Shown here: positions 36,149-51,038 of the stretch, one piece after another
Numbering within the stretch: position 1 is the first letter of the stretch
How the letters are laid out: each line of letters starts with the position of its first letter
Notes under the pieces: generated by a model
What the model was told of the DNA's origin: nothing
What the model saw: only the letters and a program-made list of their open reading frames with translations
Database searches by the model: none
Origin: an uncultured Candidatus Saccharibacteria bacterium
Lineage (GTDB): Bacteria > Patescibacteriota > Minisyncoccia > Phycocordibacterales > UBA5272
Assembly: GCA_964369115.1 (NCBI GenBank)
Contig: CAYJED010000001.1
Coordinates: 67,732-131,731, forward strand
Direction: 5' to 3'
Length of the DNA stretch: 64,000 bases
Translations under genes and position numbers: made by a program

Positions 36149-36188
36149 GGTGTAGCAACCGAAATAAAGTAAACACATTATAACATTT

Positions 36189-36222: not shown

Positions 36223-36228
36223 TTATAG

Positions 36229-36504
36229 ATGGAATTTAGCAACAAACCAATTGATGTGCTGAAAGAGATAAGTCTAGAACCCCTTAAAGAAACAAAGGTT
36301 CCTTTGGTGCGAGGTTACCGAGGAAGATTTGTAACTGGTAACCAAGAAAGTGTTGGCAATAAAGGTGGTCGTCCACGCAAACTCACACGTGCTGAACTGA
36401 TTGAAAATCCTGAGAAGTTACAAAGAATTATAGAGAGATCCGAAAATGGTGACACTGACGCACTGATCATACTAATAAACCTTATGGAGGGAAAAATAAA
36501 ATAA
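36229..36504 (+). CDS. Small basic protein with AT-hook-like GRPRK motif (possible DNA-binding regulator or recombination directionality factor)
   Basis: 91 aa; NKGGRPRKLTRAELIENPEKLQRIIE resembles an AT-hook plus HTH. No SD. Its first 20 nt are duplicated at 36505-36525. Confidence 0.4.
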   Translation: MEFSNKPIDVLKEISLEPLKETKVPLVRGYRGRFVTGNQESVGNKGGRPRKLTRAELIENPEKLQRIIERSENGDTDALIILINLMEGKIK

Positions 36505-36904: not shown

Positions 36905-37168
36905 AAGTAGAATGTACTTAGCCAAGAATTTTAGGCCTCCGATAAGTACAAGGTACCCGAGGAGAGCCAGAAAAAATTCATAGTGAAAACCGTCTGTGAT
37001 CCAAATGTAAATACTGAAAATTAGTCCAACCCAAAATGGTATTCCAAGTATAAAATAGATAACCTTAAAGGATCTATAAAGCGGTGTATTTTTTGTATCT
37101 GTAGTCATAATGATGAAATACAGAGTACCTACGTAAAAACAAAATAGGCACCCCATAGAGGTGCTCAC
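36890..37168 (-). CDS. Possible small membrane protein (about 70-92 aa)
   Basis: Hydrophobic ORF with 2-3 predicted TM helices. No SD identified. Confidence 0.3.
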   Translation of the reverse strand: MSTSMGCLFCFYVGTLYFIIMTTDTKNTPLYRSFKVIYFILGIPFWVGLIFSIYIWITDGFHYEFFLALLGYLVLIGGLKFLAKYILLGSQK

Positions 37169-37286
37169 ATATCAATAACTTTCGTTACCAATCATGTTTC
37201 CTCATAGGATGCCTATGCTGTGCACGATTGGTAACGAAATAAGCACATTAAAATGCTGATTTTGAAAAACTTATTGATATGTGAGC
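37163..37286. repeat. Long nested inverted repeat (imperfect hairpin/cruciform of about 124 nt)
   Basis: Outer 16-bp perfect IR gctcacatatcaataa (37163-37178) / ttattgatatgtgagc (37271-37286). Inner 14/15 IR ctttcgttaccaatc (37179-37193) / gattggtaacgaaa (37226-37239). Central catagg / cctatg (37203-37217). A 30-nt asymmetric insert lies in the right arm. Confidence 0.8.
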
Positions 37287-37364
37287 AAGTACATAATACC
37301 ACAAAACATTGATATCTCATAGGGTATTAGACGTAAGTTGTTCACAAGTGCCTTAACTTGGTGC

Positions 37365-37393
37365 TTGACAAAGTTAAAGTAAAGGTATATACT
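37365..37393 (+). promoter_or_regulatory. Putative sigma70-type promoter upstream of the fic gene
   Basis: TTGACA (37365-37370), 17-nt spacer, TATACT (37388-37393). Confidence 0.45.
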
Positions 37394-37422
37394 TTAACTA
37401 TAAAAATAAATAAGTAAAAGAA

Positions 37423-38586
37423 ATGAACTTCAAATCAGGTACAAAATATAAGGCAGAAACACCAAGCGGACAGAAATATACCGCCTTTTTACCTGAACTT
37501 ATAAATAAAGAATTCACTTGGAAAGATCCGCAGATAGACCTACTACTTGAACAGGCCCGAGGTTGGATTGGTGAACTTAATGCCTATTCTAAATTAGTCC
37601 CTAACGTTGAATATTTTATTCAATCTCACGTAGCAAAAGAAGCCGAACAATCTAGTAGAATTGAGGGCACTAAAACTACTCTCGAAGAACTGTACCTAGA
37701 TATTGCAGACCTTACAGACAGTGAAAAAGTAAATGACCAAGAAGAAGTTAAGAACTACATTAAAGCACTCAATGAATCTGTAAAAGAATTAACTAGTGAA
37801 AGTGGCCTACCTTTGTGTACGAGACTTGTATGTGACACACATAAAATACTTCTATCGGGTGTTCGTGGGTATTCTCGCAATCCAGGTAAAATAAGAAAAA
37901 TACAAAATAAGATCGGAGGCGGACACGGCACTTTTGAAGATGCCGTGTTTATTCCACCGTCACCAGATAAAGTAGACGACCTGCTAAAGGATCTAGAAAA
38001 CTTTTGGAATAACAATGACTTACATATACCAAACCTTATAAAGACTGCATTGTCACACTACCAGTTTGAAACCATTCACCCATTCGAAGATGGTAACGGT
38101 CGTACAGGTCGCTTGATAATCATTCTTCAACTTATCTCATATAAGATGCTCGAGAAACCAACTCTCTACCTATCAGACTATTTCGAAAAGAATCGTCCCG
38201 CATACTACGATGCCCTATCAAGGGTACGTGAGTCACACGACATAGAGCACTGGATTAAGTTTTTCTTGATCGGAGTGGCCGACACTGCAAAGAAAGGTAA
38301 AGAAACACTAGAGAAGATAATCGACTTACGAATTAAGTACGAAACACTTATTAGTGGAGGTATCGGAGCAAAGAGACAAAAACTTGCACGAGAACTCATT
38401 GTGGCCCTCTTCGAGAAACCAGTGGTAACCGCAAAAGATGTTGAAAGCATATTAAATATTACTAAACCAACTGCCCACTCCCTCGTCGATGATCTAGAGC
38501 GAGTCGGAATACTAAAAGAAAAAACAGGGTTGTCTCGTAACAGAATATTCACCCTACACGAGTACTTAGCATTATTTAATAACTAA
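37423..38586 (+). CDS. Fic/DOC family protein (putative AMPylating toxin) with N-terminal inhibitory motif
   Basis: Canonical Fic motif HPFEDGNGRTGR and an upstream SxxxEG-type inhibitory helix motif (SSRIEGT). The C-terminal part is HTH-like. Confidence 0.85.
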   Translation: MNFKSGTKYKAETPSGQKYTAFLPELINKEFTWKDPQIDLLLEQARGWIGELNAYSKLVPNVEYFIQSHVAKEAEQSSRIEGTKTTLEELYLDIADLTDSEKVNDQEEVKNYIKALNESVKELTSESGLPLCTRLVCDTHKILLSGVRGYSRNPGKIRKIQNKIGGGHGTFEDAVFIPPSPDKVDDLLKDLENFWNNNDLHIPNLIKTALSHYQFETIHPFEDGNGRTGRLIIILQLISYKMLEKPTLYLSDYFEKNRPAYYDALSRVRESHDIEHWIKFFLIGVADTAKKGKETLEKIIDLRIKYETLISGGIGAKRQKLARELIVALFEKPVVTAKDVESILNITKPTAHSLVDDLERVGILKEKTGLSRNRIFTLHEYLALFNN

Positions 38587-38592
38587 AAACAT

Positions 38593-40575
38593 ATGGAAAA
38601 CTTCAATCAAAAAACTTCAATGATCTGGAACGTAGCCGACATACTACGTGGTGGATGGAAACAACACGAATACCAAGATGTAATCTTGCCACTTGTGGTG
38701 CTTAAGAGACTGGACTCTATTCTTACAGATACCAAACAAGCAGTACTCAACAAAAACGATGAGTATCAAGGAAAAATCAATGATTTAGACCCAATCCTAA
38801 AACGTACTTCAAAAGTAGAGTTCTACAACATATCAGCATATGACTTCAAACTACTTCTTAGTGATCCAAAGAATATTGCAAAAAACTTCAGACTCTACAT
38901 AACTGGATTCAGTAAGAATATTCAAGATATATTCGAGAAATTCAACTTCAATGTGCAACTAGAAAGACTGGAGGGTGGTGACATGTTGTTCTTGGTAATT
39001 CAAGAGTTAAACAAGATAGACCTACACCCATCAAAAGTAGATAACTATCAAATGGGACACATCTTCGAAGAACTCCTTCGTAAGTTCTCTGAAATGTCTA
39101 ACGAGACCGCTGGAGAGCACTACACACCAAGAGATGTAATCAATACAATGGTTGAGATACTCTTGTCTCCAGATGCAAAGGAACTAAAAAAGCCACATGT
39201 TATCAAAAAAATATACGATCCTGCTTGTGGTACAGGTGGAATGCTTACAACTGCAAAAGATTACATTATCGACAAAGTAAACAAAGAAGCAGATATATTC
39301 CTGTACGGTCAAGAACTAAACTCAGTCACATACGCTATAGCAAAATCAGACATCCTTATAAAGGGTGAAAATCCAGACTTGATACGTGGAGGAGAAAAGG
39401 ATCACTCACTTGCAAGTACGCTTTCCAACGATCAATTCTTTGGAGAGGTATTTGACTATGGAATTTCAAATCCTCCATACGGAGTAGACTGGAAGAAAGA
39501 TAAAGATGCAGTAGATCGTGAAGCATCACGTGGATACGCAGGCAGATTCGGAGCAGGTACGCCTCGTATATCAGATGGTCAGTTGCTATTCATGGAGCAT
39601 CTTGTCTCAAAAATGAAACCAGAAAGTGATGGAGGTTCTCGTATTGCAGTAGTTCATAATGGGTCACCTCTCTTCACTGGTGATGCAGGTAGCGGAGAAA
39701 GTGAAATACGTAGATGGATACTTGAGAAAGATTTACTAGAAACAATAGTGGCACTCCCTGATCAACTTTTCTATAACACAGGTATCAATACATACCTTTG
39801 GTTCGTATCAAATAGAAAATCAAAAGAAAGAAAAGGTAAAGTACAACTCATAGATGCACGTAACTTCTACAAGAAGATGCGTAAGAGTCTCGGCAATAAA
39901 CGCCACGAGATAGATACAGATTCTCAAAAGAAAATATTTGATCTATACAATTCATTTGAAGAAAATGAGCATTCAAAGATATTCAATACTACCGACTTTG
40001 CATACCGACAAATACAAATTGAAAGACCTCTAAAACTTTCATTTGATTTCAACGATGAAAAAATAAAAGAACTGCTAGTGCTATTTTCTACAGATACAGA
40101 TAAATCAGGTATCAAGTCGTTCATAGAATCCTTCAAGGGAGAAACTTATAACGACAGAAAGAAACTTGAGGATATTATAACCAAGCGTTCAAAAGAGTTC
40201 ATCACTGGAAAACTTGGAGCGGGAGTAATAAAGAAGTTTATTTTACTCTCTGGGACCAAAGATGAGAATGCAGAAACCTGTGTGGACAAAGATGGTAACC
40301 CTGAAGCCGATGGTGACTTACGTGATCACGAGAATGTGCCCTACGGCACCGACGTGAAGGAATACTTCGACAAAGAAGTAAAACCTTATATTAGTGATGC
40401 ATGGATCAATGAATCGGTCCGAGACCACAAGGATAATCAGGTGGGTGTAGTTGGCTACGAAATACCCTTCACAAGATACTTCTATAAGTATGAAGCACCG
40501 AGAAGTCTTGAAGCAATAGAAAAAGATATTGAAGAGGTCGAAAATGAACTTCTAACCTTGCTTAAGCAATTATAA
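38593..40575 (+). CDS. hsdM: Type I restriction-modification system methyltransferase subunit
   Basis: HsdM N-terminal domain, SAM-binding region and NPPYG catalytic motif (ISNPPYGVDW). 660 aa with a C-terminal extension. Confidence 0.9.
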   Translation: MENFNQKTSMIWNVADILRGGWKQHEYQDVILPLVVLKRLDSILTDTKQAVLNKNDEYQGKINDLDPILKRTSKVEFYNISAYDFKLLLSDPKNIAKNFRLYITGFSKNIQDIFEKFNFNVQLERLEGGDMLFLVIQELNKIDLHPSKVDNYQMGHIFEELLRKFSEMSNETAGEHYTPRDVINTMVEILLSPDAKELKKPHVIKKIYDPACGTGGMLTTAKDYIIDKVNKEADIFLYGQELNSVTYAIAKSDILIKGENPDLIRGGEKDHSLASTLSNDQFFGEVFDYGISNPPYGVDWKKDKDAVDREASRGYAGRFGAGTPRISDGQLLFMEHLVSKMKPESDGGSRIAVVHNGSPLFTGDAGSGESEIRRWILEKDLLETIVALPDQLFYNTGINTYLWFVSNRKSKERKGKVQLIDARNFYKKMRKSLGNKRHEIDTDSQKKIFDLYNSFEENEHSKIFNTTDFAYRQIQIERPLKLSFDFNDEKIKELLVLFSTDTDKSGIKSFIESFKGETYNDRKKLEDIITKRSKEFITGKLGAGVIKKFILLSGTKDENAETCVDKDGNPEADGDLRDHENVPYGTDVKEYFDKEVKPYISDAWINESVRDHKDNQVGVVGYEIPFTRYFYKYEAPRSLEAIEKDIEEVENELLTLLKQL

Positions 40576-40579
40576 TTAT

Positions 40580-41782
40580 ATGAAAGAAGAAACAAAAAAT
40601 ATAATATGCCCTGAATGCGGAACATCAATATCAATCGATGATGCTTTAACGCACCAGATTGAAAACAAACTCAAGAAAGAATATGAGGACAAAGAAAAAT
40701 CAATAAGAGAATCTATTGAAAAAGAATCTTCAAAGAAACTTGAGCAAGATAAGGTAGAAATGGAAAAGAAATTAAAAGCACAGGTCCTAAAAGATACTGA
40801 GGCAGAAAAGGTAGCATCCAATGAAAAAAATAAACTCCTTGAAGAACAACTTGCTGATAAAGAGGCAAAACTAAAAGAAGCACGTCAGAATGAAGTTGCT
40901 CTCATAAAAGAGAAGCAGAAACTAAAGGATGATCAGGAGGCATTCGAATTAGAAAAGACACGCCAACTTGCAGAGGAAAGAAAGCAAATAGAAGAAGATG
41001 CTTCAAGGAAAGCCACTGATGCAAAGCAATCTGAAATCGATCAACTTAACAAGAAACTATCTGATGCTACAAAAGCAAAAGATGAATTAGCAAGAAAACT
41101 AGAACAAGGGTCACAGCAGACCCAAGGCGAGGTCCAAGAACTGGCCCTAGAAGAACTCCTTAAGGAGGCATTCATCTATGACGACGTATCTCCTGTTGGA
41201 AAAGGTGTTACTGGTGCAGACGTTATACAAACTGTCAAAACAAAGTCTGGTGTTGAATGCGGGAAAATAATCTGGGAATCAAAGAAAACTAAAACATGGA
41301 CCGAGGGATGGATACAGAAATTGAAAGATGACCAGAGACAGGTTAAAGCAGATCTTGCGGTTATTGTTACATCTGCTATGCCTCAAGGAACTAGTGGTAT
41401 CACCCAGAAAGATGGTGTATGGATTTGTGATATCAAATTGGCTCTATCAATAGCAACACTACTGAGACACTCACTTGAGACAGTAGCCAGAGAAAAGTCT
41501 ATGTCTGTAGGTAAGAATGAGAAAGTTGAAATCCTATACGCATACCTCACAGGCACAGAGTTCAAACAAAGAATCGAAGTGATAGTAGAGACATTTTCTA
41601 GTATGAAAACTTCTCTTGATAAAGAGAAACTTTACTTCACCAAAACTTGGGCAGAAAAAGAGAAACAAATAGATCGAGTTATACAAAATACTGTAGGCAT
41701 CTACGGTGATCTTAGCGGTGTCGTTCAATTGCAAAAAATTGAGTCACTTGAATTACCAAGCGGAGTAGATAAAGAAGAATAA
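40580..41782 (+). CDS. Zn-ribbon + long coiled-coil + C-terminal putative PD-(D/E)xK-like domain protein (DUF2130-like) embedded in the R-M operon
   Basis: CPECGTSI zinc ribbon, about 200 aa of K/E-rich coiled coil, and a C-terminal GADVIQTV...KIIWESKKTK segment compatible with D...ExK nuclease core motifs. Confidence 0.55.
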   Translation: MKEETKNIICPECGTSISIDDALTHQIENKLKKEYEDKEKSIRESIEKESSKKLEQDKVEMEKKLKAQVLKDTEAEKVASNEKNKLLEEQLADKEAKLKEARQNEVALIKEKQKLKDDQEAFELEKTRQLAEERKQIEEDASRKATDAKQSEIDQLNKKLSDATKAKDELARKLEQGSQQTQGEVQELALEELLKEAFIYDDVSPVGKGVTGADVIQTVKTKSGVECGKIIWESKKTKTWTEGWIQKLKDDQRQVKADLAVIVTSAMPQGTSGITQKDGVWICDIKLALSIATLLRHSLETVAREKSMSVGKNEKVEILYAYLTGTEFKQRIEVIVETFSSMKTSLDKEKLYFTKTWAEKEKQIDRVIQNTVGIYGDLSGVVQLQKIESLELPSGVDKEE

Positions 41783-41783
41783 T

Positions 41784-43070
41784 ATGCAAACACTCAAACT
41801 CACAAAAAAATATGAGACATACCCTGAATACAAAGATTCGGGTGTTGAGTGGTTGGGTATGATTCCGAAAGATTGGAAATACAAAAAACTAAAATCATTT
41901 TTCTCACTAAGTAATGAAAAAGTTGCTGAGAATCCAGAAATCACAACCATTCTTTCTGTCTCAGGTTACAGAGGTGTAGAAATTAGAAAAAATACTGAGA
42001 CTTTTGATGGACAAATGCCATCAGAAAATGTTGATGCATATAGAATTGTAAGAAAAAACCAACTAGTAGTTAATACTATGTGGCTTAACTTTACTGGACT
42101 GGGTGTATCAAATTATGAAGGGTACGTTAGTCCTGCATATAGGGCGTACAACATATCGAAAGAAATGCTCCCAGAATATGTAAATCATTTAATGAGATCT
42201 ACTGCTTATGTTCAAAAATATTCTAGTCTATTATACGGAATGCGACCAAATTCTCTTCAGGTGAAGCCGTATGATTTCGAAAAGATTGAAATATTGTATC
42301 CAGATATAAAAGAACAAAAACGTATTTCAATGTACCTTGATAAAAAAACTACTCTCATTGATCAGATAATAGAAAGAAAAGAAGCACTAATTGTTATCTT
42401 ACGGGAAAAAAGAAATGCTACGATAAGCAAGCAAATAGTTGAAAATACTGGAAAAGATTGGAAAGTTAAAAAAATTAAGCACCTAGTTAAATCAATTGAA
42501 TCTGGAATATGGGGAGACAATCCATTATCTAATAAAGATGACATTAAGTGTTTACGTATTGCTGATTTTGATTATGACAACTTCAGTTACTCTACAGTTG
42601 AAACAATAAGGAATAATTCAAACCTACAGGAAAGAAAGGTTCTCAGAAAAGGAGATATTCTTATGGAAAAATCTGGTGGCGGTGAAAAGACTCCAGTCGG
42701 TCGTGCGATATTGTTTTCCTCTGACGAAAGAATGGTTTGTGCAAACTTTATAGATAAAGTACGTGTTGATAAAGAAAAAATACTCCCAGAGTTCTTAGTC
42801 CTATACCTATCGGTGCTTTATGCAGGTAGAGTAAACACAAAATATATTAAACAAAACACTGGTATCCAGAATATGGATATTAAAGAATACTTTGGAGAGA
42901 ATATTTCCTACCCTGATATTAAAACCCAGAAAAATTTAACGGAATTTGTTAACGCTAAGATTAGTGCTTTTAACAAAGCAATTTCTGATGTAGAAAAAAC
43001 CATTGAAACATTAAAGGAGTTCAAGACTTCTCTTATTTCCAATGCAGTAACAGGAAAAATCAAAGTATAA
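41784..43070 (+). CDS. hsdS: Type I R-M specificity subunit
   Basis: Two target-recognition-domain halves separated and followed by conserved coiled-coil regions. 428 aa. Placed between hsdM and hsdR. Confidence 0.85.
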   Translation: MQTLKLTKKYETYPEYKDSGVEWLGMIPKDWKYKKLKSFFSLSNEKVAENPEITTILSVSGYRGVEIRKNTETFDGQMPSENVDAYRIVRKNQLVVNTMWLNFTGLGVSNYEGYVSPAYRAYNISKEMLPEYVNHLMRSTAYVQKYSSLLYGMRPNSLQVKPYDFEKIEILYPDIKEQKRISMYLDKKTTLIDQIIERKEALIVILREKRNATISKQIVENTGKDWKVKKIKHLVKSIESGIWGDNPLSNKDDIKCLRIADFDYDNFSYSTVETIRNNSNLQERKVLRKGDILMEKSGGGEKTPVGRAILFSSDERMVCANFIDKVRVDKEKILPEFLVLYLSVLYAGRVNTKYIKQNTGIQNMDIKEYFGENISYPDIKTQKNLTEFVNAKISAFNKAISDVEKTIETLKEFKTSLISNAVTGKIKV

Positions 43071-43074
43071 ATAT

Positions 43075-43707
43075 ATGGCAAAAATTGAGATAAACAAAAC
43101 ACACATAGACGCACTAAAGAAACAGAAAAGGACTGTGGGTCTTTTGCAATTTCAAAATAGAGACGATCAAAACTTTTCAAAATGGTATTCACTTACAGAA
43201 AACTTGATAATTAAATCTTTTGGACAAAAGTCTAATCAACTTGGGCAACTTACATCCCTATATCATAAAATGCCAAGAACCGAAGACTTAAAGTATGAAT
43301 TTGATAGAGGTAGATTGGATATAAAAGATTGTAAAGAAAAATTAAAAGACTTGCTTGAAAACTTAATAGCCGAACTGGAATTGGATCTTGCTTCTGAAAA
43401 TGAAGACACAAAAGATAAGCCAACCAAAAAAGGTACATCTATAAAGATCAAAAATAGTCAAACGCAAACGCAAACCATAAATATTACACTGACAATAGAT
43501 CAAATAATTAATAGAATTAAAGAAACAGAATCAGACCCACAAAGAGTCTCGGAAGCAGAAGTAAAATTAAAAGAATTAGATTCTGAATTAAAATCAAAAT
43601 CTCCAGTATGGTCGAAAGTAAAAGACGCTCTAATATGGTTACTGAATTTCGGAAGAGACACATTTTTACAGGTCTTACCCATTATCTTAGAAAGATACAA
43701 ACAGTAA
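43075..43707 (+). CDS. Hypothetical protein (210 aa) between hsdS and hsdR
   Basis: ORF with tight spacing to its neighbours (4-5 nt gaps). Predicted helical; no known motifs. Confidence 0.5.
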   Translation: MAKIEINKTHIDALKKQKRTVGLLQFQNRDDQNFSKWYSLTENLIIKSFGQKSNQLGQLTSLYHKMPRTEDLKYEFDRGRLDIKDCKEKLKDLLENLIAELELDLASENEDTKDKPTKKGTSIKIKNSQTQTQTINITLTIDQIINRIKETESDPQRVSEAEVKLKELDSELKSKSPVWSKVKDALIWLLNFGRDTFLQVLPIILERYKQ

Positions 43708-43708
43708 T

Positions 43709-46690
43709 ATGAAAACACTAACAAACACAAAAGAATCAGGATTCGAAGAGTTCATACAAAATGAACTTGAGAAGATGCATGGATACAAAATCCGCTCATC
43801 ACATCTCTATGACAAGAAACTCTGTATGGATACAGAACTTGTTATTGAGTTCATAGAAAAAACCCAACCTCAAGCATGGGAGAAACTTTCTGAACAGTAT
43901 GGAGAGAACGTAAAGGCAAAAGTTCTGCAGAGAATAGACGAGGAAGTAGACTCACGTGGGATACTCTCAGTATTTCGTGAGGGCATCACAGATAGAGGTG
44001 TGCGTTTCAAACTTGCATTCTTACAACCACAGAATGATTTGAATCCAGAACTAATGCAGGAATATGCTGGGAATATTTTGAGCGTGACTCGCCAAGTGAA
44101 GTACAGTGAGCAGAATGAGAACTCGCTCGACGTGGTCCTATTTATAAATGGATTACCAGTATTCACTCTCGAACTTAAGAATCAATTCACAGGTCAGAAT
44201 GTTATACACGCTATCCATCAATACAAAACAAGTCGAGACCAAAAGGAGAAACTTTTGTCGTTTAAGCGATGCATCACACACTTTGCAGTTGATACAGATC
44301 AAGTGTATATGACAACTCGTCTTACTGGACTCACTACGTACTTTTTACCTTTCAACAAAGGAGACAAAGGTTCATCTGGTAACCCGACAGCACCTGAGGG
44401 TAAATACAAAACTCATTACTTGTGGGAAGAGATTTTCTCAAAGGATATGGTGTTTGATTTGATTGGAAATTTCATACAAGATGTCACTGAAGAAAAAGTA
44501 GATAAGAATGGAAAGAAGCGAAAAGAAGAGAAACTTATCTTCCCTCGATATCATCAACTAGATACTGTGAACCGAATACTAACTCATGTAAAAGCAAATG
44601 GGACTGGTAATAACTACCTCATACAACACAGTGCAGGATCAGGGAAAAGTAATACTATCGCTTGGACCGCACACCGTTTGGCGGAATTACACGATCAAAG
44701 CAATAAACCGATTTTTGATGGGGTTATAGTGGTTACCGACCGAAGAGTGCTAGATAGCCAGTTGTCGGCCACTGTGGACAGTTTTAGCCAAGTTGGAGGG
44801 GTCGTAAAGCACGTAGAGAGTTCTGCTGACCTCAAAGGAGCACTTGAGGGTGGAGTTAAGATCATTACGAGTACTCTACAGAAATTCCCAGTTATCGTTA
44901 GTTCTATAGAAAAGACTGAGGGTAGAAAATTTGCTGTTATCGTTGATGAAGCACACTCGTCACAGTCAGGAGAAAGTTCAGCGGATTTGAGACAGGTGCT
45001 TACTCTTGATGATGCTGTAACGCAAGAAGAAAAAGAAGAGAAGTTATTTAAGACAGTCGAAGATCTTCTTAATGAAAGAATGAAATCAAGAAAGGTTACT
45101 TCACCGAACCTGAGTTTTTTTGCATTTACGGCTACACCAAAACAAAAGACAATTGAACTCTTTGGAACTCAAGATGTGGTTACAGGTAAATTCATCCCTT
45201 TTTCTCTTTATTCAATGAAACAAGCGATTGAAGAAAAGTTCATCTTAGATGTGCTTAAAAACTACACAACCTACGAAACATACTTCGGTCTCTTAAAGAA
45301 GATTGAAGATGACCCAGAGTTCAATAAGAAAAAGGCACAGAGACTACTAATTGGATATGTAGAAAGAAATGAACATGCGATCTTGAAAAAGGTAGCAATC
45401 ATGACTGAGCATTTCGAACAGAAGATCTCAAAACTAATTGGAGGTAAAGCCAAGGCAATGATAGTAACTAAATCACGTTTACATGCCGTGAGATATAAAC
45501 TTGCCTTCGATGCTTACTTAAAGGAAAAAGGTTATGAGCATAAATCCCTTGTTGCTTTCTCTGGTAGTGTTGTTGATCCTGATACAAAACTTGAATATAC
45601 AGAAACTCAAATGAATCATATTCCAGAAAGCCAAACTGCTGAAGAATTCAAGAAAGATGAGTACAAATTCTTAATTGTTGCAGAGAAGTTTCAGACTGGA
45701 TTTGATCAACCGTTACTATCTGCAATGTATGTAGATAAGAAATTAGGAGGCGTAAATGCTGTGCAGACTCTTTCTCGTTTGAACCGCACAACATACGGAA
45801 AAGAAGATACTTTTGTACTAGACTTCTTTAACAAGACAGACGATATCAAGGAAGCATTCCAACCGTACTATACTACTACCGTACTTTCTGAAGCGACAAA
45901 TCCTAACTTATTACATAACCTCGAAAGAGAAGTTCGTGGGTTCAAGTTGTTTACCGACTTTGAGTTGAATGGATTTGTGGAAGAACTCTTTGGAGGTGCA
46001 ACCCCAGACAAACTAAATCACATAATAGATGTGATAGTTGAAAGAGCATTATCCGAAAAAGATGCGGAAGAAATTGAAAGTTTCAAGTCAGTAATTTATG
46101 ACTACTTGAAGAAGTATTCATTTATCTCACAGATCGTAACCTTTGAGGACCCTCAACTAGAGAAGTTGTATATATTCCTAAAGTTCTTGATAAAGAAACT
46201 TCCAAGACGAGAAAACCCTCTGCCAGTAGAGGTCCTTGAGGCAATTGATATGGAAACATACAAGATAGATAAAAAAGGAGAAACTGATGTGATGCTTGAA
46301 AATAAAGATGGAGAACTAGACCCTATGACTGGTGGAGGTGGTAAAAAAACTGGAGGAGATGAAGAGGAAGATGCATTATCTAAGATAATTAAGGAGATAA
46401 ATGAACGATACGGAACAAACTTTAGCGATAATGACAAAGTTATACTTAATGACCTAAGTGCAAAACTACTAAAGAGTACAATTCTTCAAGGTTCAATACA
46501 AAACAACAGTAAGGATTCTGCGAAGTTGAAGTTCGATCAACTCTTCCAAGACGAACTAGTTGGGATGCTTGATAACCACTTTAACCTCTACCAGAAACTG
46601 GACCAAAGCCCAGAATTAAAGAAATTCGTACAGGAGAAAGTCTTTGAACATGTGGTAAAGAAGATGAACACCAATAAAACAAAGGATTAA
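43709..46690 (+). CDS. hsdR: Type I restriction enzyme R subunit
   Basis: N-terminal nuclease domain, SF2 helicase motifs (HSAGSGKSNT Walker A; VIVDEAHSSQ DEAH box), C-terminal domain. 993 aa. Confidence 0.9.
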   Translation: MKTLTNTKESGFEEFIQNELEKMHGYKIRSSHLYDKKLCMDTELVIEFIEKTQPQAWEKLSEQYGENVKAKVLQRIDEEVDSRGILSVFREGITDRGVRFKLAFLQPQNDLNPELMQEYAGNILSVTRQVKYSEQNENSLDVVLFINGLPVFTLELKNQFTGQNVIHAIHQYKTSRDQKEKLLSFKRCITHFAVDTDQVYMTTRLTGLTTYFLPFNKGDKGSSGNPTAPEGKYKTHYLWEEIFSKDMVFDLIGNFIQDVTEEKVDKNGKKRKEEKLIFPRYHQLDTVNRILTHVKANGTGNNYLIQHSAGSGKSNTIAWTAHRLAELHDQSNKPIFDGVIVVTDRRVLDSQLSATVDSFSQVGGVVKHVESSADLKGALEGGVKIITSTLQKFPVIVSSIEKTEGRKFAVIVDEAHSSQSGESSADLRQVLTLDDAVTQEEKEEKLFKTVEDLLNERMKSRKVTSPNLSFFAFTATPKQKTIELFGTQDVVTGKFIPFSLYSMKQAIEEKFILDVLKNYTTYETYFGLLKKIEDDPEFNKKKAQRLLIGYVERNEHAILKKVAIMTEHFEQKISKLIGGKAKAMIVTKSRLHAVRYKLAFDAYLKEKGYEHKSLVAFSGSVVDPDTKLEYTETQMNHIPESQTAEEFKKDEYKFLIVAEKFQTGFDQPLLSAMYVDKKLGGVNAVQTLSRLNRTTYGKEDTFVLDFFNKTDDIKEAFQPYYTTTVLSEATNPNLLHNLEREVRGFKLFTDFELNGFVEELFGGATPDKLNHIIDVIVERALSEKDAEEIESFKSVIYDYLKKYSFISQIVTFEDPQLEKLYIFLKFLIKKLPRRENPLPVEVLEAIDMETYKIDKKGETDVMLENKDGELDPMTGGGGKKTGGDEEEDALSKIIKEINERYGTNFSDNDKVILNDLSAKLLKSTILQGSIQNNSKDSAKLKFDQLFQDELVGMLDNHFNLYQKLDQSPELKKFVQEKVFEHVVKKMNTNKTKD

Positions 46691-46763
46691 AGACTATTTT
46701 CCTCTATCACAGCAATTCGCACATCGTCCCACACTCGGAGCAAAAAGTAAAATCCTCAGGTTT

Positions 46764-46808
46764 CATGCCTGAGGATTTTACTTTTTGTTTCAATCGAAGC
46801 AAGTGACC
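46764..46808 (+). terminator. Strong rho-independent terminator after hsdR
   Basis: aaagtaaaatcctcagg-tttcatg-cctgaggattttacttt perfect 17-bp stem followed by ttgtttc. Confidence 0.65.
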
Positions 46809-46904
46809 TGCGTCACTTGCGTGTAGGGTCGAATAGGGCTCGCGAATCTGCTTCGAGGAGTTTACGACGAGGCAGATTTGTGAGAGATCCCTACTCGCGG
46901 AGCA
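46809..46904 (+). repeat. Structured arm plus 19-nt tRNA-3' core, copy A (att-like junction)
   Basis: gcaagtgac-ctgc-gtcacttgc hairpin, then aatctgcttcg...cgaggcagatt hairpin, ending in gatccctactcgcggagca (46886-46904). Confidence 0.7.
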
Positions 46905-46908
46905 AAGG

Positions 46909-46937
46909 TTGACAATAACCAAATTATAATGTATAAT
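46909..46937 (+). promoter_or_regulatory. Consensus sigma70-type promoter
   Basis: TTGACA (46909-46914), 17 nt, TATAAT (46932-46937). Confidence 0.5.
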
Positions 46938-46967
46938 ATGGTTATTGTTCTATTTTAGGAGTTTCGT

Positions 46968-47180
46968 ATGTATATGGGAAAGTTTGTTTGCGGAAATCCT
47001 GTTTGCAAAAAAGTTTTTGCTGGCAGTGACGATGGATTCTCTGTGAGTGAGTGTCCGCACTGTGGTGCTGGCGCAAACTCTGTTCACCCTGAACCGGAAC
47101 GCACTGACCGAGGTATTGAGCAAGTTGACTACGATGCTCGTAAGGAGCTGTACCAACAGCAACGTTTCGCTGGTTGGTAA
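46968..47180 (+). CDS. Small zinc-ribbon protein (70 aa)
   Basis: AGGAG SD. CGNPVCKK ... CPHCG two CxxC pairs. Confidence 0.5.
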   Translation: MYMGKFVCGNPVCKKVFAGSDDGFSVSECPHCGAGANSVHPEPERTDRGIEQVDYDARKELYQQQRFAGW

Positions 47181-47183
47181 ATT

Positions 47184-47220
47184 ACCGCCCGAGCAAAAAA
47201 ACTGCTTCGGTGGTTTTTTT
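47184..47220 (+). terminator. Terminator hairpin (paralogous to 48664-48702)
   Basis: accgcccgagca-aaaaaac-tgcttcggtgg followed by ttttttt. Confidence 0.5.
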
Positions 47221-47500
47221 GCTTTTATACTCCACTTTCTTCAATAATCGCCTGTCGAACATCTTCCCAGGTTCGGAGCCAAGAGAGACGAGACGCCATG
47301 AAAATGGCGTTTTGTCCTTTTATACCAAGGTAATTAGTAGGTTCTAACCTTTTCATTATCTCCTTTTGCGCTTTTAATTCGTTTTCAATCAAAATAAATG
47401 GATGCGCCTTCTCAATTATGAGCTTTTTATCTTTTAAAGTTAGGTTCGAGCCAATTGTTGAAAATATCGTTCGCTTCTTTTTGAGGTCTCCTGTATTGAA

Positions 47501-48115
47501 ATGATGGAAAGCAAAGGCACAAAAATTAAAGGCCCTCTCTGTAGGGTTGTCTACGGTTCTCTTGCTATCATGGTCATTTCAGTTATTTACAAGATATTTT
47601 TTGATCCAAACTGGCAAGTTCTTTTCTCTGCATCTGTCGCATACGCAAGTTTATTTAATAGGACTATTACTCAACATCTCCCGAAACTCTTCTCTAAGAG
47701 TGATGGTAAAGTTGCCACGACTGAATATTTAATTGATAAAGTTGTACTAGAAAGTATAAATGTATGTAACGCAAATGGTTTATTCTTTAATCAGGCAGTA
47801 TTGGTGTCTGAAGATTCATCACAAATAATTACAATCCCGAACGAGAGAATAAACGATATAGACTCATATCTTAATGAGTTAAAATTAAGCGATTTTAAAC
47901 ATAACAACATTGCTATCGCTATGGCAGGCTCATATGATTGGAAACAATTCTTGTGGAGTGGTGTAAAGCATTACGAGGCATTAATAATTGAAGTCTACTT
48001 ATCTAAAGGAGTGAAAAAGTATAGTTTTTGCCAAACTATTGATAATGATTCGGGCTTATACAAGCCAAGTGAACGAGGGTTAATATATCAAGGTTCTGTA
48101 GCAATCAAAGGGTAA
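47501..48115 (+). CDS. Hypothetical protein (204 aa)
   Basis: ORF with an N-terminal hydrophobic segment. No family recognised. Weak SD. Confidence 0.4.
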   Translation: MMESKGTKIKGPLCRVVYGSLAIMVISVIYKIFFDPNWQVLFSASVAYASLFNRTITQHLPKLFSKSDGKVATTEYLIDKVVLESINVCNANGLFFNQAVLVSEDSSQIITIPNERINDIDSYLNELKLSDFKHNNIAIAMAGSYDWKQFLWSGVKHYEALIIEVYLSKGVKKYSFCQTIDNDSGLYKPSERGLIYQGSVAIKG

Positions 48116-48219
48116 GTGAAAGATTTGCTCCAATCAAAAGTTCTGAACCTGTGTACCGTTCGGAGCATTAATACAAAAAGCCACAAGTTCATTCTTGTGG
48201 CTTTTTGTATTAACTTTTC

Positions 48220-48327
48220 AACGAAGCAAGTGACCTACTTCACTTGCATGTAAGATCGAATACGGGGTCGAGGTTCTACTTCGAGCAAAGCGAGGTAGAA
48301 TCGTGACCGATCCCTACTCGCGGAGCA
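48220..48327 (+). repeat. Structured arm plus 19-nt tRNA-3' core, copy B
   Basis: gcaagtga-cctact-tcacttgc hairpin, ctacttcg...cgaggtag hairpin, ggggtcg...cgatccc pairing, ending in gatccctactcgcggagca (48309-48327). Confidence 0.7.
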
Positions 48328-48330
48328 CTA

Positions 48331-48359
48331 TTGACAAAAGCATTATATATTGTTATACT
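48331..48359 (+). promoter_or_regulatory. Consensus sigma70-type promoter (paralogue of 46909-46937)
   Basis: TTGACA (48331-48336), 17 nt, TATACT (48354-48359). The downstream 5'UTR is similar to the one at 46938-46967. Confidence 0.5.
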
Positions 48360-48395
48360 GCTTTTGTTCTTTCATCAGTATACAGGAGTTACAAA

Positions 48396-48665
48396 ATGTT
48401 TCGTTTCAGTTCGAAGGTCAAACCGCCTTACAACAACAGAAAAGAACATGCAAAATGGAAGAAAAAGTTCGCTTTCTTTCCGGTCGTTATCAGCAGAACA
48501 GGAACCACAGAAACTAAGGTCCTATTTTGCTTCTACGAGGAGCGTGTCTACTGCGACCCCATGGGTGCTTCTGTGTATGGTGGTGATACGGTAACCGAAC
48601 GTCGTCTGCCGGGTTCAACAGAAGTCTGTGAAGTTGATCGACATGATGGTGACCCATTGCTCTAA
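48396..48665 (+). CDS. Small hypothetical protein (about 89 aa)
   Basis: AGGAG SD 7 nt upstream of ATG 48396. Lys-rich N-terminus, C-terminal Cys residues. Confidence 0.45.
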   Translation: MFRFSSKVKPPYNNRKEHAKWKKKFAFFPVVISRTGTTETKVLFCFYEERVYCDPMGASVYGGDTVTERRLPGSTEVCEVDRHDGDPLL

Positions 48666-48702
48666 CCGCCAAGCAAGAAACTGCTTCGGCGGTTTCTTGT
48701 TT
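48664..48702 (+). terminator. Terminator hairpin (paralogous to 47184-47220)
   Basis: accgccaagca-agaaac-tgcttcggcgg followed by tttcttgtttt. Confidence 0.5.
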
Positions 48703-48810
48703 TACACTTCATCCCTCAAACTTTTCATATTCATCATCCCCACCCTCATACCCGAGTACTCCCTCATCAGTTCGGTAAAGAAGGTTTGTGGGGAGCACAT
48801 AAAATCTTAA

Positions 48811-48839
48811 GTCCACCATTTCGGTGGACTTTTGATTTT
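48811..48839 (+). terminator. Hairpin plus T-run
   Basis: gtccacc-atttc-ggtggac followed by ttttgatttt. Confidence 0.4.
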
Positions 48840-48897
48840 AGTGCTCAGTGAGAGTAAAGCCAACTGCTTGGCTTTTCTTTTTGATATACTTATATAA

Positions 48898-49429
48898 TGA
48901 ATACTTACGTGGCTCTACTCCGTGGAATAAATGTAGGAGGTAATAACAAAATTGAAATGACAAAACTCAAAGTCCTTTTTGAGTCACTCGGCTACACGAA
49001 TGTTGTTACTTACATCAATTCAGGCAACGTAATATTTGAGACAAGAAAAAAGATGTCAGTCGGCTGACAAGTGAAATTGAAAAAGGTATAAAAAAGAAAT
49101 TCAAGCTAGATATTCCAGTTGTACTACGTACACAACAAAGTATTGAGAAAGTGTGTAAGAACATCCCACCAGATTGGGTAAATGATAAAGATAATAAAAC
49201 TGATGTAATGTTTCTGTGTGATGAGTTTGCAAGTAAGAAAACTCTAAAAATAATTTCTACTAACCCAAAAATTGATTCGTTACTGTATGTTGATGGGGCT
49301 ATTGTTTGGCATCTAAAAAAGAAGGATTACGAAAAGAGTAAAATGAATGACATTATCGGTACAGAAGTATACAAAAATATGACTATACGAAACATCAATA
49401 CTGTTCGGAAACTTGCAACATTGATGTAA
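48898..49429 (+). pseudogene. DUF1697-family gene disrupted by a -1 frameshift in an A6 run
   Basis: N-terminal part MNTYVALLRGINVGGNNKIEMTKLKVLFESLGYTNVVTYINSGNVIFETRKK stops at TGA 49065-49067. The downstream frame (track ORF 49151..49429, open from about 49063) continues LTSEIEKGIKKKFKLDIPVVLRTQQSIEK... One extra A in aaaaaa (49046-49051) would fuse them. Confidence 0.7.
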
Positions 49430-49440
49430 AAGAAACTATC

Positions 49441-49560
49441 TCTTTTTCTGTACTCACCCAGTCCAAAGTTCTGAACTCGTCCACTAGAGGGATCGAATAC
49501 GGGGTCGAGATTATACTTCGAGCGAAGCGAGGTAGAATCATGACCCGACCCCTACTCGTA
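49441..49560 (+). repeat. Structured arm plus degenerate tRNA-3' core, copy C
   Basis: gggatcgaatacggggtcgag...cgaggtagaatcatgacccgacccctactcgta. ggggtcg/cgacccc pairing. The core is degenerate at 3 positions. Confidence 0.55.
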
Positions 49561-49976
49561 GAAATGAGCGATCATTGTCCTTACAAACCATTCAAGCTGA
49601 TGCTTGCCTCGATCTGTAAGCACCTCGGCGAGTTTGTCGATCTGTGGATGCAACAGAAGATTGTCATGCTCCAAAAAACTGTCGCAACGCATTGCCGTAG
49701 CAACCCGATGTGAAGAAACTCGCCAAGCATTGCAAGAATCTCAATCATGCCTTGGTCAGCGAAGAGGACATCATGATCCCCGATGAAAAGTAACCAATAC
49801 TGTGTGGTTAGATTTCACATTTAAATAAGACTTTTGGTCAAGATTTGTCTTGTGACATAAGAGGCTCGGTACATGATGTCATAAACCATAAGACCAAAGG
49901 AGTAGCTTTAGTCTATAGTCATCCAAATACCAGTGAACACAACCCGGGCCCCGTTTCGACGGGTGCTTTTTCTTTT

Positions 49977-50228
49977 TTAGCGATGTGTGCACCCAGCCCA
50001 ACAGCAAGGTCTCTTTTTTCCTTGTAATAAATCATTGTGCAATCTTTCTATTCGACCCTTCCTCGTATCTTCTTTCTTTGCGGAGTCTATAAAACAGAGC
50101 CATTCATTTCTAGCAAGTGGAGTAATGTTTTCCCAGGAAGTGTACATTTTTTCAGAAGAGAGAAGTCTTTCTTTTACATCTGTTGGAATTTTGTGAACAA
50201 CTCCATCCGAAAGAGGTCTTTTTATCAT
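49977..50228 (-). CDS. YdeI/OmpD-associated family-like small protein (83 aa)
   Basis: The C-terminal NEWLCFIDSAKKEDTRKGRIERLHNDLLQGKK resembles the conserved YdeI C-terminal motif (..W...AK..eTR.rRi...). Only the C-terminal domain is present. Confidence 0.45.
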   Translation of the reverse strand: MIKRPLSDGVVHKIPTDVKERLLSSEKMYTSWENITPLARNEWLCFIDSAKKEDTRKGRIERLHNDLLQGKKRPCCWAGCTHR

Positions 50229-50291: not shown

Positions 50292-51038
50292 ATGCTTTAT
50301 TTTCTACTTAGTGCACTCGTTGTTATTATTGTAAGTATTCGTCAAATAAATCAGTATGAACGTGGAGTTAAGTTTACTCTCGGAAAGTTTTCTTCTGTAA
50401 TGGAACCAGGATGGAGGATTGTCGTTCCTGTCTTTCAGTCGTATCAAAAAATTGATATTCGCATTAAGGCGGTAGATGTTCCAGACCAGAATGCGATCAC
50501 GAAAGATAATGTTTCCGTAAAAGTAAATGCAGTTATTTACTACAAGGTTAGCGACGCACAAAAATCAATCATTGAAGTAGAAGATTTTAGATATGCTATT
50601 TCGCAATATGCCCAGACCACAATGAGAAACATTGTAGGAGAAGTAACGCTCGACGAGCTTCTTTCAAGTCGAGATAAAATTGCAGATAGAATCAGAGAAA
50701 TTGTTGATAAGGAGACAGATGCCTGGGGTCTTGTGGTTCAGAATGTTGAACTTAAAGATGTAAGTCTTCCTCCTGATATGGAAAGAACCATTGGTAAACA
50801 AGCGGAAGCTGAAAGAGAAAAAAGGGCTGTAATCATTAATTCTGAAGGAGAATTGGCAGCATCGGAAAATCTTGCAAAAGCAGCGGAGATGCTTGCAAGT
50901 ACTCCTGGAGCACTCCACCTTCGAACTTTGCAGTCTATCAATGATATGTCTTCTGATCAGTCAAATACAGTGGTGTACATGGTTCCAGTGGAAGCTCTTA
51001 AAGCTCTTGAAGGTTTTACAAAACTTGGCAAAGCCTAA
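50292..51038 (+). CDS. SPFH/band-7 (stomatin-like) protein
   Basis: N-terminal TM, SPFH domain (ERGVKFTLGKF...AITKDNVSVKVNAVIYYKV), then an EA-rich coiled coil. Confidence 0.85.
   Translation: MLYFLLSALVVIIVSIRQINQYERGVKFTLGKFSSVMEPGWRIVVPVFQSYQKIDIRIKAVDVPDQNAITKDNVSVKVNAVIYYKVSDAQKSIIEVEDFRYAISQYAQTTMRNIVGEVTLDELLSSRDKIADRIREIVDKETDAWGLVVQNVELKDVSLPPDMERTIGKQAEAEREKRAVIINSEGELAASENLAKAAEMLASTPGALHLRTLQSINDMSSDQSNTVVYMVPVEALKALEGFTKLGKA

Follow-up and report, generated by a model that had tools for sequence, protein, structure and literature searches.

The arms that precede a repeated 19-mer in the window, the whole stretch of 64,000 nucleotides analysed here, are copies of one hairpin-forming module of ~110-125 nt that is made from the end of tRNA-Asn, inverted as well as direct. 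A sequence-only reading had pointed to three arms of shared architecture, and this was confirmed: copies A, B and C, which terminate at 46904, 48327 and 49565, fit a single profile (E 1e-24 to 1e-32). The extent of the third arm had to be redrawn, as the homology of copy C begins at ~49487 and its 5' part is found at 48841-48876. The first part of the module is an inverted and partial tRNA-Asn 3' end, its T-arm TAGGGATCGAA set apart from its acceptor strand TGCTCCGCGAG by hairpin 1; the second is hairpin 2, which varies in length, and the third is the 19-mer, which repeats the tRNA 3' end in direct orientation.

Copies of the module in the window and in related loci

The features of the window are as follows (LSR, large serine recombinase; handles of the type L013 are related loci).

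32822-32894 (+): tRNA-Asn(GTT), from ARAGORN, an Rfam tRNA match of 70.1 bits, pattern search and the sequence
32882-34570 (-): LSR gene of island 1, Pfam Resolvase E 2.7e-18
32896-46742 (.): island 1, with LSR, Fic and type I R-M genes (hsdM, DUF2130, hsdS, hsdR), from Pfam
46741-46787 (+): palindromic terminator, 20-bp perfect, before copy A, seen as an inverted repeat; in L013 it is the tRNA's own terminator
46796-46904 (+): module copy A, covariance-model match of 116.6 bits; hairpin 1 at 46799-46820, inverted T-arm remnant GTAGGGTCGAATAGGG at 46823-46838, hairpin 2 at 46839-46884, 19-mer at 46886-46904
46909-46948 (+): promoter TTGACA-17-TATAAT, 12/12 consensus, within a 17-bp palindrome, from the inverted repeat and the ORF list
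47223-47541 (-): 3' fragment of a second LSR gene, 95.6% identical to residues 478-567 of the L034 LSR (tblastn)
48130-48213 (+): right-arm-like island motif ending in GGAGCA (48130-48167), then a 20-bp palindromic terminator (48168-48213), before copy B
48223-48327 (+): module copy B, covariance-model match of 108.4 bits; hairpin 1 at 48226-48247, inverted T-arm remnant at 48250-48267, hairpin 2 at 48272-48302, 19-mer at 48309-48327
48331-48367 (+): promoter TTGACA-17-TATACT (promoter B), within a palindrome
48784-48840 (+): core-like GTTTGTGGGGAGCAC (48784-48798) and terminator (48800-48840)
48841-48876 (+): 5' part of copy C, matched by L011 and L010 in BLAST and weakly by the covariance model
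48897-49429 (+): frameshifted gene splitting copy C (ORFs 48897-49067 and 49151-49429), which from its N-terminal motif we take to be DUF1697-like
49487-49565 (+): 3' part of copy C, covariance-model match of 64.8 bits; inverted T-arm remnant at 49487-49504, hairpin 2 at 49509-49539, degenerate core GACCCCTACTCGTAGAAAT at 49547-49565

The promoter at 46909-46948 drives a 70-aa ORF (46968-47180), and promoter B drives an 89-aa ORF (48396-48665). The 5' part of copy C consists of GTGCTCAGTGAGAGTA, a degenerate inverted tRNA acceptor strand, together with a fourth version of hairpin 1, AAAGCCAA CTGC TTGGCTTT. In sister strains the module is uninterrupted, whereas copy C is split by the DUF1697-like gene; the terminator at 48800-48840 precedes the native module in all of these strains.

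Where their blocks align without gaps, copies A, B and C are 7-25% different. Their closest relatives are found in other genomes, copy A being 90% identical to L013, and copy B is chimeric, combining an A-type hairpin 1 with a 3' part that is 93% identical to copy C. Because of these closer relatives elsewhere and the chimeric make-up of B, the three are not in-place duplicates, and duplication in place with subsequent drift was rejected.

In its native position, in a clade of Saccharibacteria-like bacteria, the module lies between the tRNA-Asn terminator and either the first promoter of a gene-cassette array located downstream or the conserved flank. Seven sister strains (L026, L027, L030, L031, L034, L035 and L036) each have one identical, complete module, which closes a variable island slot on the right and precedes the OmdA/Band_7 flank by ~730 nt. 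The island right arm joined to it differs from strain to strain, the junction being always that of GAGCAC with ATAAAATC. Hairpin 1 stays at the same junction and the three-part architecture is kept across lineages with flanking genes only ~70% identical, and also in the much longer variant of L039 and L025, the L025 module being the reverse complement of the L039 module. The covariance-model search proposed along with the first reading found copies in the 64-kb window only at this locus, and those in the related loci that were fetched all lay at the homologous position; dispersal of the REP or MITE type was not seen in this material. Scans of sequence collections gave 1 true locus in genomes, and 5 true loci plus 7 chance matches in metagenomes, while three viral scans found no module. 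A phage origin was rejected, as positions 46000-50000 had no megablast match to phage records. We found no published description of such a conserved folded module of inverted and direct tRNA ends.

Islands at tRNA-Asn and a candidate second attachment site

The tRNA-Asn locus is the attachment site of LSR-carrying islands, with crossover at the GGAGCA end of the tRNA, and the 3' end of the tRNA is their primary attachment site. This end, GATCCCTACTCGCGGAGCA (32877-32895), is the repeated 19-mer, for which a pattern search returned 19/19 matches at 32877, 46886 and 48309 against a chance expectation of 0.01. The 19-mer had been described as an att-like repeat; it is indeed a direct repeat of the target, the tRNA-Asn 3' end, and so not anonymous, but the copy at 46886 is not an island boundary, as seen in L013. 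The LSR gene of island 1 has its stop codon inside the T stem of the tRNA, and its frame is open across the reconstructed attP, as judged from translations of the integrated and the reconstructed excised forms and from variant P0180. An LSR adjoins tRNA-Asn in the window and in L011, L018, L021 and L035. The tRNA-adjacent recombinase belongs to the Resolvase family PF00239 (window, L018, L021, L034, L035), with PF07508 and PF13408 also found in relatives.

Locus L013 is an empty site in which tRNA-Asn is joined directly to a homologue of window 46743 onward, and this places the right end of island 1 at 46742; the end itself is a degenerate core, CCCACACTCGGAGCA, at 46728-46742. The order in L013 is tRNA-Asn, terminator, A-type module and promoter, with 90% identity to window 46728-46949. 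The 19-mer at 46886, being also present in this empty site, was rejected as the right end of island 1. The second LSR fragment is still in the un-recombined attP configuration, with the core GGAGCC at 47275-47280.

A handful of comparative junctions suggest that the 19-mer of the module, together with the promoter that follows it, is a second attachment site (attB2) that has probably already been used. The module half-site is identical to the primary attB half-site. In the window the 19-mer adjoins promoter B, and in L001 and L008 the same promoter comes after an island right arm ending in GGAGCAC, with the similarity starting exactly at the core. In L039 a right arm is followed by a module similar to promoter A, and L148 has further junctions of right arm and promoter. 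Among the loci found, no LSR gene directly adjoins the 19-mer of a module.

Small same-strand ORFs form arrays of cassettes 3' of the module, and these cassettes bear their own consensus promoters and terminators. Most cassette junctions (L001, L008, L039, L148) consist of island right arm, core and promoter, without the module. An inverted cassette in L008 (5528-6316), with a direct 19-mer on one side and a perfect inverted 24-mer on the other, speaks for inversions between cores, as does the reverse-complementary module of L025. Apart from one HNH domain, a Pfam search of the cassette ORFs returned no families.

Pairing, strand bias and predicted fold

The stems proposed from the sequence were recovered as described. 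Hairpin 1 pairs GCAAGTGAC (46799-46807) with GTCACTTGC (46812-46820) in copy A and GCAAGTGA (48226-48233) with TCACTTGC (48240-48247) in copy B, and hairpin 2 pairs CTCGCGAATCTGCTTCG (46839-46855) with CGAGGCAGATTTGTGAG (46868-46884) in A, GGTTCTACTTCG (48272-48283) with CGAGGTAGAATC (48291-48302) in B and GATTATACTTCG (49509-49520) with CGAGGTAGAATC (49528-49539) in C. In the closing pairing of copy C, GGGGTCG (49501-49507) faces CGACCCC (49546-49552), and copy B, with CGATCCC, has a G·T pair there; the presence of the tRNA 3' end in both inverted and direct copy accounts for this closing "stem".

According to folding predictions, one strand of the module can form a Y, with the 19-mer paired, hairpin 1 at the junction and hairpin 2 as the distal arm. 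Folded as RNA, the + strand reached -52.8 kcal/mol for copy A (z -5.65, 0/200 shuffles as good), -39.7 kcal/mol for copy B (z -3.45, 0/200 shuffles) and -29.3 kcal/mol for copy C (z -1.9, 4/200 shuffles). The Y-shaped fold was also predicted for L011, L010 and L001 (z -4.6 to -5.3) and for the longer L039 variant (z -8.0). Folding the two strands separately with RNA parameters, as had been suggested, we found the + strand to be more stable than the - strand in 8/9 variants.

Compensatory changes in the stems had been taken to imply selection for pairing, and this gained support from homologues in other metagenomes, which keep the stems through two-sided changes. Pairing was found in 92.9% of cells, compared with 33-43% with slid partners, in a model-based alignment built from an alignment and structure that already held these copies, so that neither the structure nor the slid-partner controls are independent of the sequences tested; in this alignment a one-pair indel in the A-type hairpin 1 is misaligned, and three outer hairpin 1 pairs scored as "unpaired" are alignment artefacts. 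Six hairpin 2 pairs (15 cells) changed on both sides, values reached by 4/500 and 0/500 shuffles, and the covariation score was 0.196 compared with 0.102 in shuffles, the sample being ~7 independent full-length sequences of a narrow clade and the shuffle controls ignoring relatedness. Compared by eye, hairpin 1 occurs at the same position in four wholly different, fully complementary versions. Transition-type mismatches on the tRNA-sense strand are G·T, not A·C, with 22 G·T cells at 8 column pairs versus 1 properly aligned A·C cell. The unpaired blocks TCGAATA and GTGA are invariant while the stems vary, and the loop sequences are not conserved. The alignments point to stems that are kept by selection on the tRNA-sense strand.

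Copy C combines a degenerate core (CGCAGAAAT / CGTAGAAAT) with intact hairpins, which may therefore have a use other than attB2. Large serine recombinases need just ~40-50 bp of duplex DNA, without folded arms, so their biochemistry does not explain hairpins 1 and 2.

A second tRNA, a pseudo-tRNA and a tmRNA were rejected, as ARAGORN finds tRNA-Asn only and hairpin 2, judged by eye, does not derive from an anticodon arm. An antisense sRNA from the palindromic promoter was also rejected, given that copies A and B have no convincing minus-strand promoter and that the pairing bias favours the plus strand.

Possible roles of the fold and comparison with known systems

The explanation that we put forward, tentatively, is a chromosomal landing-pad module beside tRNA-Asn, with 19-mer and promoter as a secondary attB and with copies A and B imported with islands. 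LSR islands cross over at the GGAGCA end of tRNA-Asn, and the module 19-mer with the following promoter would be a spare attachment site, attB2, for their use. Copies A and B would be foreign versions of the module, brought in with LSR islands by accretion at the tRNA, and C would be the resident. The fold would act in DNA, where a cruciform or hairpin could either expose the spare attB half-site or keep it hidden, and it could also permit inversions between oppositely oriented cores. This DNA role of the fold, which we favour over a free-standing RNA gene, is the least certain element.

The same fold could belong to a structured RNA of tRNA sense, either a piece processed from read-through of tRNA-Asn or the upstream gene that insulates or processes transcripts, or a stable small RNA, the 3' end of which would mimic the acceptor/T-stem strand of a tRNA. 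Such an RNA would fit the compensatory changes, the greater stability of the + strand in 8/9 variants (RNA parameters), the invariance of TCGAATA and GTGA beside varying stems and the apical part of hairpin 2, which varies in length as in many RNAs; the conserved G·U pairs of the + strand, with almost no A·C, make a single-strand asymmetry that suits RNA at least as well as DNA. The setting of the module makes this reading rather unlikely, however: every copy is directly 3' of a strong terminator, a long perfect hairpin with a T-run, the strong promoter is downstream and not upstream of the module, and its 5' side showed no conserved promoter. Moreover, Rfam 15 gave no match to the module at gathering score or even at E up to 10, loops are not conserved in sequence, and each pristine genome has one copy, tied to a recombination site. 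Alternatively, the module might be a functionless relic, made of nested scars of old integrations and inversions and of decayed terminator-like palindromes, with arm complementarity produced by template-switch or hairpin-templated repair rather than by selection. The locus is in fact rich in other long co-varying palindromes (terminators of 20-31 bp, promoter palindromes), and the arrays are strewn with partial tRNA ends, LSR fragments and truncated modules, much as partial tRNAs are scattered in tycheposon islands (10.1101/2020.12.28.424599). Hairpins 1 and 2 of copies A, B and C contain no terminator-like sites except for the hairpin 1 version at 48856-48875, which does score as a terminator. 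We consider a relic unlikely, since the three-part architecture persists across lineages with ~70% identical flanking genes and in the longer L039/L025 variant, one strand shows a mismatch bias towards G·T and the unpaired blocks do not change.

A folded site like the attC of integrons had also been suggested, and here the data spoke against the suggestion: the module is a fixed chromosomal feature by tRNA-Asn, missing from most cassette junctions, the sole recombinases seen at the locus are large serine recombinases, and the cassettes have promoters and terminators of their own. No IntI-type tyrosine recombinase was found among the ORFs scanned in part of the window and in related loci, and a search for RYYYAAC/GTTRRRY boxes gave no GTTRRRY core, the closing repeats being TGCTCCGCGAG/TAGGGATC and GATCCCTACTCGCGGAGCA. 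We consider it very improbable that the single-stranded Y fold is itself the substrate, like attC/attI, with cassettes moving in and out at its 3' end. In topology it does resemble attC: two inverted-repeat pairs close the fold, its terminal hairpin is variable and the closing helix has the crossover at its 3' end; small same-strand ORFs follow in arrays, and one strand is favoured. Serine recombinases, however, act on duplex DNA, no tyrosine recombinase was seen among the ORFs scanned at any of the loci, and the module is single-copy in pristine strains. It also seems improbable to us that the ultra-small CPR bacteria have here a serine-recombinase counterpart of the integron, that is, a folded acceptor site beside tRNA-Asn that mimics a tRNA end, is recognised by structure and serves a promoter-bearing cassette array. 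If this were true, cassettes would be captured and inverted by way of a folded substrate, DNA or RNA, instead of an ordinary duplex att site.

Little has been described of gene flux and mobile elements in the CPR bacteria, Saccharibacteria included; the locus combines a strain-variable defence-island slot at tRNA-Asn, LSR genes that span their own attachment site and small promoter-bearing cassette arrays nearby. If the fold takes part in recombination, structure-dependent site recognition would extend beyond integrons and single-stranded phages; if it is RNA, it would be a new tRNA-linked motif. Under either reading, the module is a searchable marker for such hotspots.

With integron attC sites the module shares structure conserved over sequence, inverted repeats that close the fold, a variable terminal hairpin, a favoured strand and nearby cassettes, but it comes without IntI or GTTRRRY, is not at each cassette, and is accompanied by serine-type recombinases and by self-promoted, self-terminated cassettes. 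In SCC-type islands (SCCmec, Enterococcus cassette chromosome), Ccr large serine recombinases act at the 3' end of rlmH, and direct repeats of the target end stand between the members of an array, some of them pseudo-elements without a recombinase, with inverted repeats at the borders. Insertion by an LSR at the 3' end of a conserved gene and direct repeats of the target end are found here as well, whereas our target is a tRNA, the repeat lies within a ~110-nt folded module and the LSR gene spans attP. The PeSL promoter/stem-loop cassettes of T4-type phages, reportedly described by Arbiol et al. in 2010, and the REP/BIME elements are similar in having conserved promoter-plus-hairpin modules around variable small ORFs, which could shuffle them by recombination, and in being extragenic palindromes with compensatory changes. 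In contrast, the present module is in a bacterial chromosome, is not dispersed in the 64-kb window and is linked to a single tRNA and to islands with site-specific recombinases. Lastly, the tycheposons of Prochlorococcus are islands with a tyrosine or large serine recombinase that insert at tRNA genes and are flanked by partial tRNA copies (Hackl et al., 10.1101/2020.12.28.424599), and newcomers displace older elements inward, so that remnants and extra partial tRNAs build up (10.1101/2020.12.28.424599). The LSR islands at tRNA-Asn, the strain-variable defence cargo, the LSR fragments and the repeated tRNA ends are all reminiscent of tycheposons. What differs is the context of the repeated tRNA end, which here forms part of a conserved module on the chromosome side that is complementary to itself, adds a tRNA copy in inverted orientation and has two hairpins that co-vary.

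The tRNA-Asn repeat and the right end of island 1

The 19-mer GATCCCTACTCGCGGAGCA, found three times in the window against an expected 0.01, is a tRNA end, its first occurrence being the 3' end of tRNA-Asn(GTT).

Landmarks of the locus, in window coordinates
32822-32894, tRNA-Asn(GTT), the sole tRNA gene of the window
32882-34570, minus strand, reading frame of the island 1 large serine recombinase (LSR), with 46686-46742
46728-46742, degenerate core CCCACACTCGGAGCA
46741-46787, 48168-48213 and 48800-48840, terminators
47223-47541, minus strand, second LSR remnant, with core GGAGCC at 47275-47280
48841-48876 and 49487-49565, 5' and 3' parts of module copy C
48897-49429, frameshifted gene (ORFs 48897-49067 and 49151-49429) that we take to be DUF1697-like from its N-terminal motif, read by eye
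50292-51038, Band_7/slipin protein of the right flank

The 562-aa LSR (Pfam Resolvase) adjoins tRNA-Asn on the opposite strand, with its stop codon within the tRNA, and is followed by Fic and then by a type I restriction-modification operon ending at 46690. An empty site is found in the metagenomic contig L013, where terminator, A-type module and promoter come directly after an identical tRNA-Asn, in a stretch 90% identical to window 46728-46949. Given this empty-site junction, the 14-kb island ends at the degenerate core, and the terminator and copy A are, as judged from L013, what follows the tRNA where no island has inserted.

The LSR reading frame runs across the attachment site of the recombinase itself. 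After integration the protein ends in ...STMLRE*, whereas the reconstructed excised form, joined to the island right arm, has 576 aa and ends in ...STMLRVWDDVRIAVIEENSL*, also given as ...VWDDVRIAVIEENSL*; P0180, a 581-aa version of this protein from the database, ends in ...STMLCLWDNVRKEIILKRSEFSKPD, also given as ...LWDNVRKEIILKRSEFSKPD. Because the integrated and excised ends differ, integration exchanges the recombinase's C-terminal tail, with a possible bearing on directionality control. The position of the gene across attP also means that type-1 right arms at least carry the last LSR codons and mark past island ends. The second LSR remnant consists of the last 90 codons, sharing 95.6% identity with the LSR that sister strain L034 carries; it is truncated on its 5' side, adjoins a 204-aa ORF and is still in the un-recombined attP configuration.

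Architecture and covariation of the module

The stems that the sequence-only reading had listed for 46798-46885, 48220-48308 and 49441-49546 were all found in the sequence. Copies A, B and C are homologous, as a single profile matches all three (E 1e-24 to 1e-32), and their mutual identity is 82-93% when only gap-free aligning blocks are counted. When the plus strand was folded as RNA and compared with 200 shuffles, copy A reached -52.8 kcal/mol (z -5.65) and copy B -39.7 kcal/mol (z -3.45), neither equalled by any shuffle, while the truncated copy C reached -29.3 kcal/mol (z -1.9; 4 of 200 shuffles as good).

Parts of the module, 5' to 3', taken from the complete copies in contigs L011 and L010
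Part 1, GTGCTCCGCGAG, reverse complement of the tRNA acceptor 3' strand
Part 2, AGTA, then hairpin 1
Part 3, CGT, then TAGGGATCGAATA, reverse complement of the T-arm
Part 4, hairpin 2
Part 5, GA(T/C)CCCTACTCGCGGAGCA, direct copy of the tRNA 3' end

The closing pairing proposed earlier thus results from the presence of both an inverted and a direct tRNA 3' end. The fold is predicted to be Y-shaped: the split inverted copy pairs with the 19-mer, hairpin 1 leaves where acceptor and T-stem meet, and hairpin 2 forms the distal arm. A longer, strongly diverged variant at locus L039 keeps the same part order (fold z -8.0), and the module of L025 is the reverse complement of that variant. Of the first inverted segment, little has survived in window copies A and B, and copy C is split by the DUF1697-like gene, whereas the resident module is uninterrupted in all sister strains. 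There, a 31-bp perfect palindrome with the tRNA terminator at its centre has as its outer end the opening segment of the inverted copy, and this segment could thus pair with either of two partners, the tRNA itself and the 19-mer downstream. The palindrome is that of the terminator, extended so as to take in the tRNA acceptor strand; the terminators of the window are 18-20-bp palindromes, two perfect and the third 89% complementary, wholly unlike one another in sequence between units, and bidirectional to judge from the A-tracts and T-tracts flanking them.

The stems are maintained, and the compensatory changes suspected in their arms were borne out. Eight distinct sequences were aligned by a covariance model that had itself been made from seven of these copies, so that the alignment leans towards the structure; in it, standard pairs filled 92.9% of cells, against 33-43% when partners were slid by 1-3 columns. 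In this sample of few independent sequences from a narrow clade, and against shuffles that ignore relatedness, six pairs had changed on both sides (equalled by 4/500 shuffles), as had 15 cells (0/500), with a covariation score of 0.196 against 0.102 ± 0.013. Hairpin 2 and its extension hold five of the six doubly changed pairs. The clearest case, compared by eye, is hairpin 1, which has four versions at one position, each fully complementary.

Versions of hairpin 1, arms separated by a slash
GCAAGTGAC / GTCACTTGC, copy A and L013; grouped with it, the 8-bp GCAAGTGA / TCACTTGC of copy B
GTAACATGAC / GTCATGTTAC, L011; L010 and L001 with one G·U each
GTTTCAGAC / GTCTGAAAC, L039
AAAGCCAA / TTGGCTTT, window 48856-48875

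The mismatches are non-random: G·T occupies 22 cells, spread over eight column pairs, against one properly aligned A·C cell, three more A·C cells being artefacts of the hairpin 1 indel. Counting column pairs as events (8 vs 1) gives, as an estimate by hand, a binomial p of about 0.02-0.04. Under RNA folding, moreover, the plus-strand fold beats the minus-strand fold in 8/9 variants, and the two biases together point to the tRNA-sense strand, in single-stranded form, as the target of selection. Template switching or a like mutational process could also contribute to the co-varying arms, because other palindromes at the locus (terminators, promoter palindromes) co-vary as well.

The slot after tRNA-Asn in sister strains and related loci

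Scanning with a DNA pattern recovered module homologues in L001, a record titled Candidatus Saccharibacteria MAG, and in metagenomic contigs L008/L017, L010, L011 and L013; seven other matches were due to chance. Many sister strains of the window's own species, recovered by anchoring on flanking genes, each hold one complete module, identical in all of them, that lies roughly 730 nt ahead of the OmdA/Band_7 flank. The Band_7/slipin protein is 85-92% identical to Pacebacteria-, Wolfebacteria- and Parcubacteria-labelled proteins, an unusual conservation across candidate phyla. The island right arm differs per strain and joins the common terminator always at the junction of GAGCAC and ATAAAATC. 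With this uniform junction and a single module, the pristine locus is tRNA-Asn, terminator, module and flank, in which the LSR crossover is at GGAGCA. The extra copies A and B occur only in the window's strain and the near-identical contigs L002-L005.

The slot holds different cargo per strain or species (among L026, L027, L034/L035, L018, L021, L025 and L036, the last being equal to L011). Left of the module in the sister strains are type I restriction-modification whose operon includes an RVT_1 reverse transcriptase, DUF3800, AAA_25 and AAA_15, or an N6_N4 methylase with a ResIII endonuclease; further cargoes are Prim-Pol and an MmeI-type methylase with PLD-SNF2. Such variety marks the slot as a defence-island hotspot.

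Small same-strand ORFs form arrays downstream of the modules in L001, L008, L039 and L148; each ORF has a consensus promoter within a palindrome and its own terminator, and the array junctions run from right arm through GGAGCA to promoter. In L148-L151 (about 10 kb each), at least 15 such ORFs without Pfam domains are parted by junctions of ...GGAG(C/A)A with a TTGACA promoter; among the products of these arrays is a 171-aa protein family whose gene comes first after the module in L008 and L013. Consensus promoters also follow the 19-mer (window 46909-46948 and 48331-48367; L008 6504-6545; L013 1203-1245; L039 2866-2905), within 14-19-bp palindromes that span -35 to about +10, co-vary in their arms between versions and have a T-run behind them. 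Cassettes with unrelated ORFs in different genomes have these promoter modules in common, and the promoter module after the 19-mer of copy B is the one that follows a right arm ending GGAGCAC in L001 and L008, the similarity beginning exactly at the core. This is the relation expected between attB and attR, and the 19-mer/promoter junction thus probably served as a secondary attachment site. In L008, a cassette of promoter, 145-aa ORF and terminator (5528-6316) lies in reverse orientation, with a direct 19-mer on one side and a perfect 24-mer of the tRNA 3' end, itself inverted, on the other. Together with the inversion of the module in L025 (12680-12861) relative to L039 (748-935), this suggests site-specific inversion between oppositely oriented cores.

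Origin of the extra copies and role of the fold

Each extra module follows LSR material, which in the case of copy A is island 1 and in that of copy B the LSR fragment together with the 204-aa ORF; the nearest relative of copy A is the tRNA-downstream region of another species. We infer that A and B were imported with islands as hitch-hiking chromosomal flank, after which they would have decayed.

As to the fold itself, we rank first, though tentatively, a role at the DNA level, as one component of the landing pad. LSRs use short duplex sites and hence leave hairpins 1 and 2 unexplained. The strand bias would fit a sense-strand RNA element, which we rank second and consider rather unlikely: every copy stands directly after a strong terminator, the consensus promoter follows the copy rather than preceding it, and the module matched no family in Rfam. 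Ranked third, and more doubtful still, is a relic held palindromic by mutation bias, a process for which the co-varying terminators and promoter palindromes would speak. Last comes a true attC-like folded substrate, which we regard as highly improbable; the analogy to integron attC sites raised by the sequence-only reading comes down to a shared topology, none of the defining attC features that could be tested having been found.

The searchable literature yielded no description of the module, or of a hotspot of this kind in Saccharibacteria. The overall situation resembles LSR composite islands of the SCC type, and the tRNA-Asn locus shares with tycheposons, which are tRNA-targeting islands, both tandem accretion and scattered partial tRNAs.
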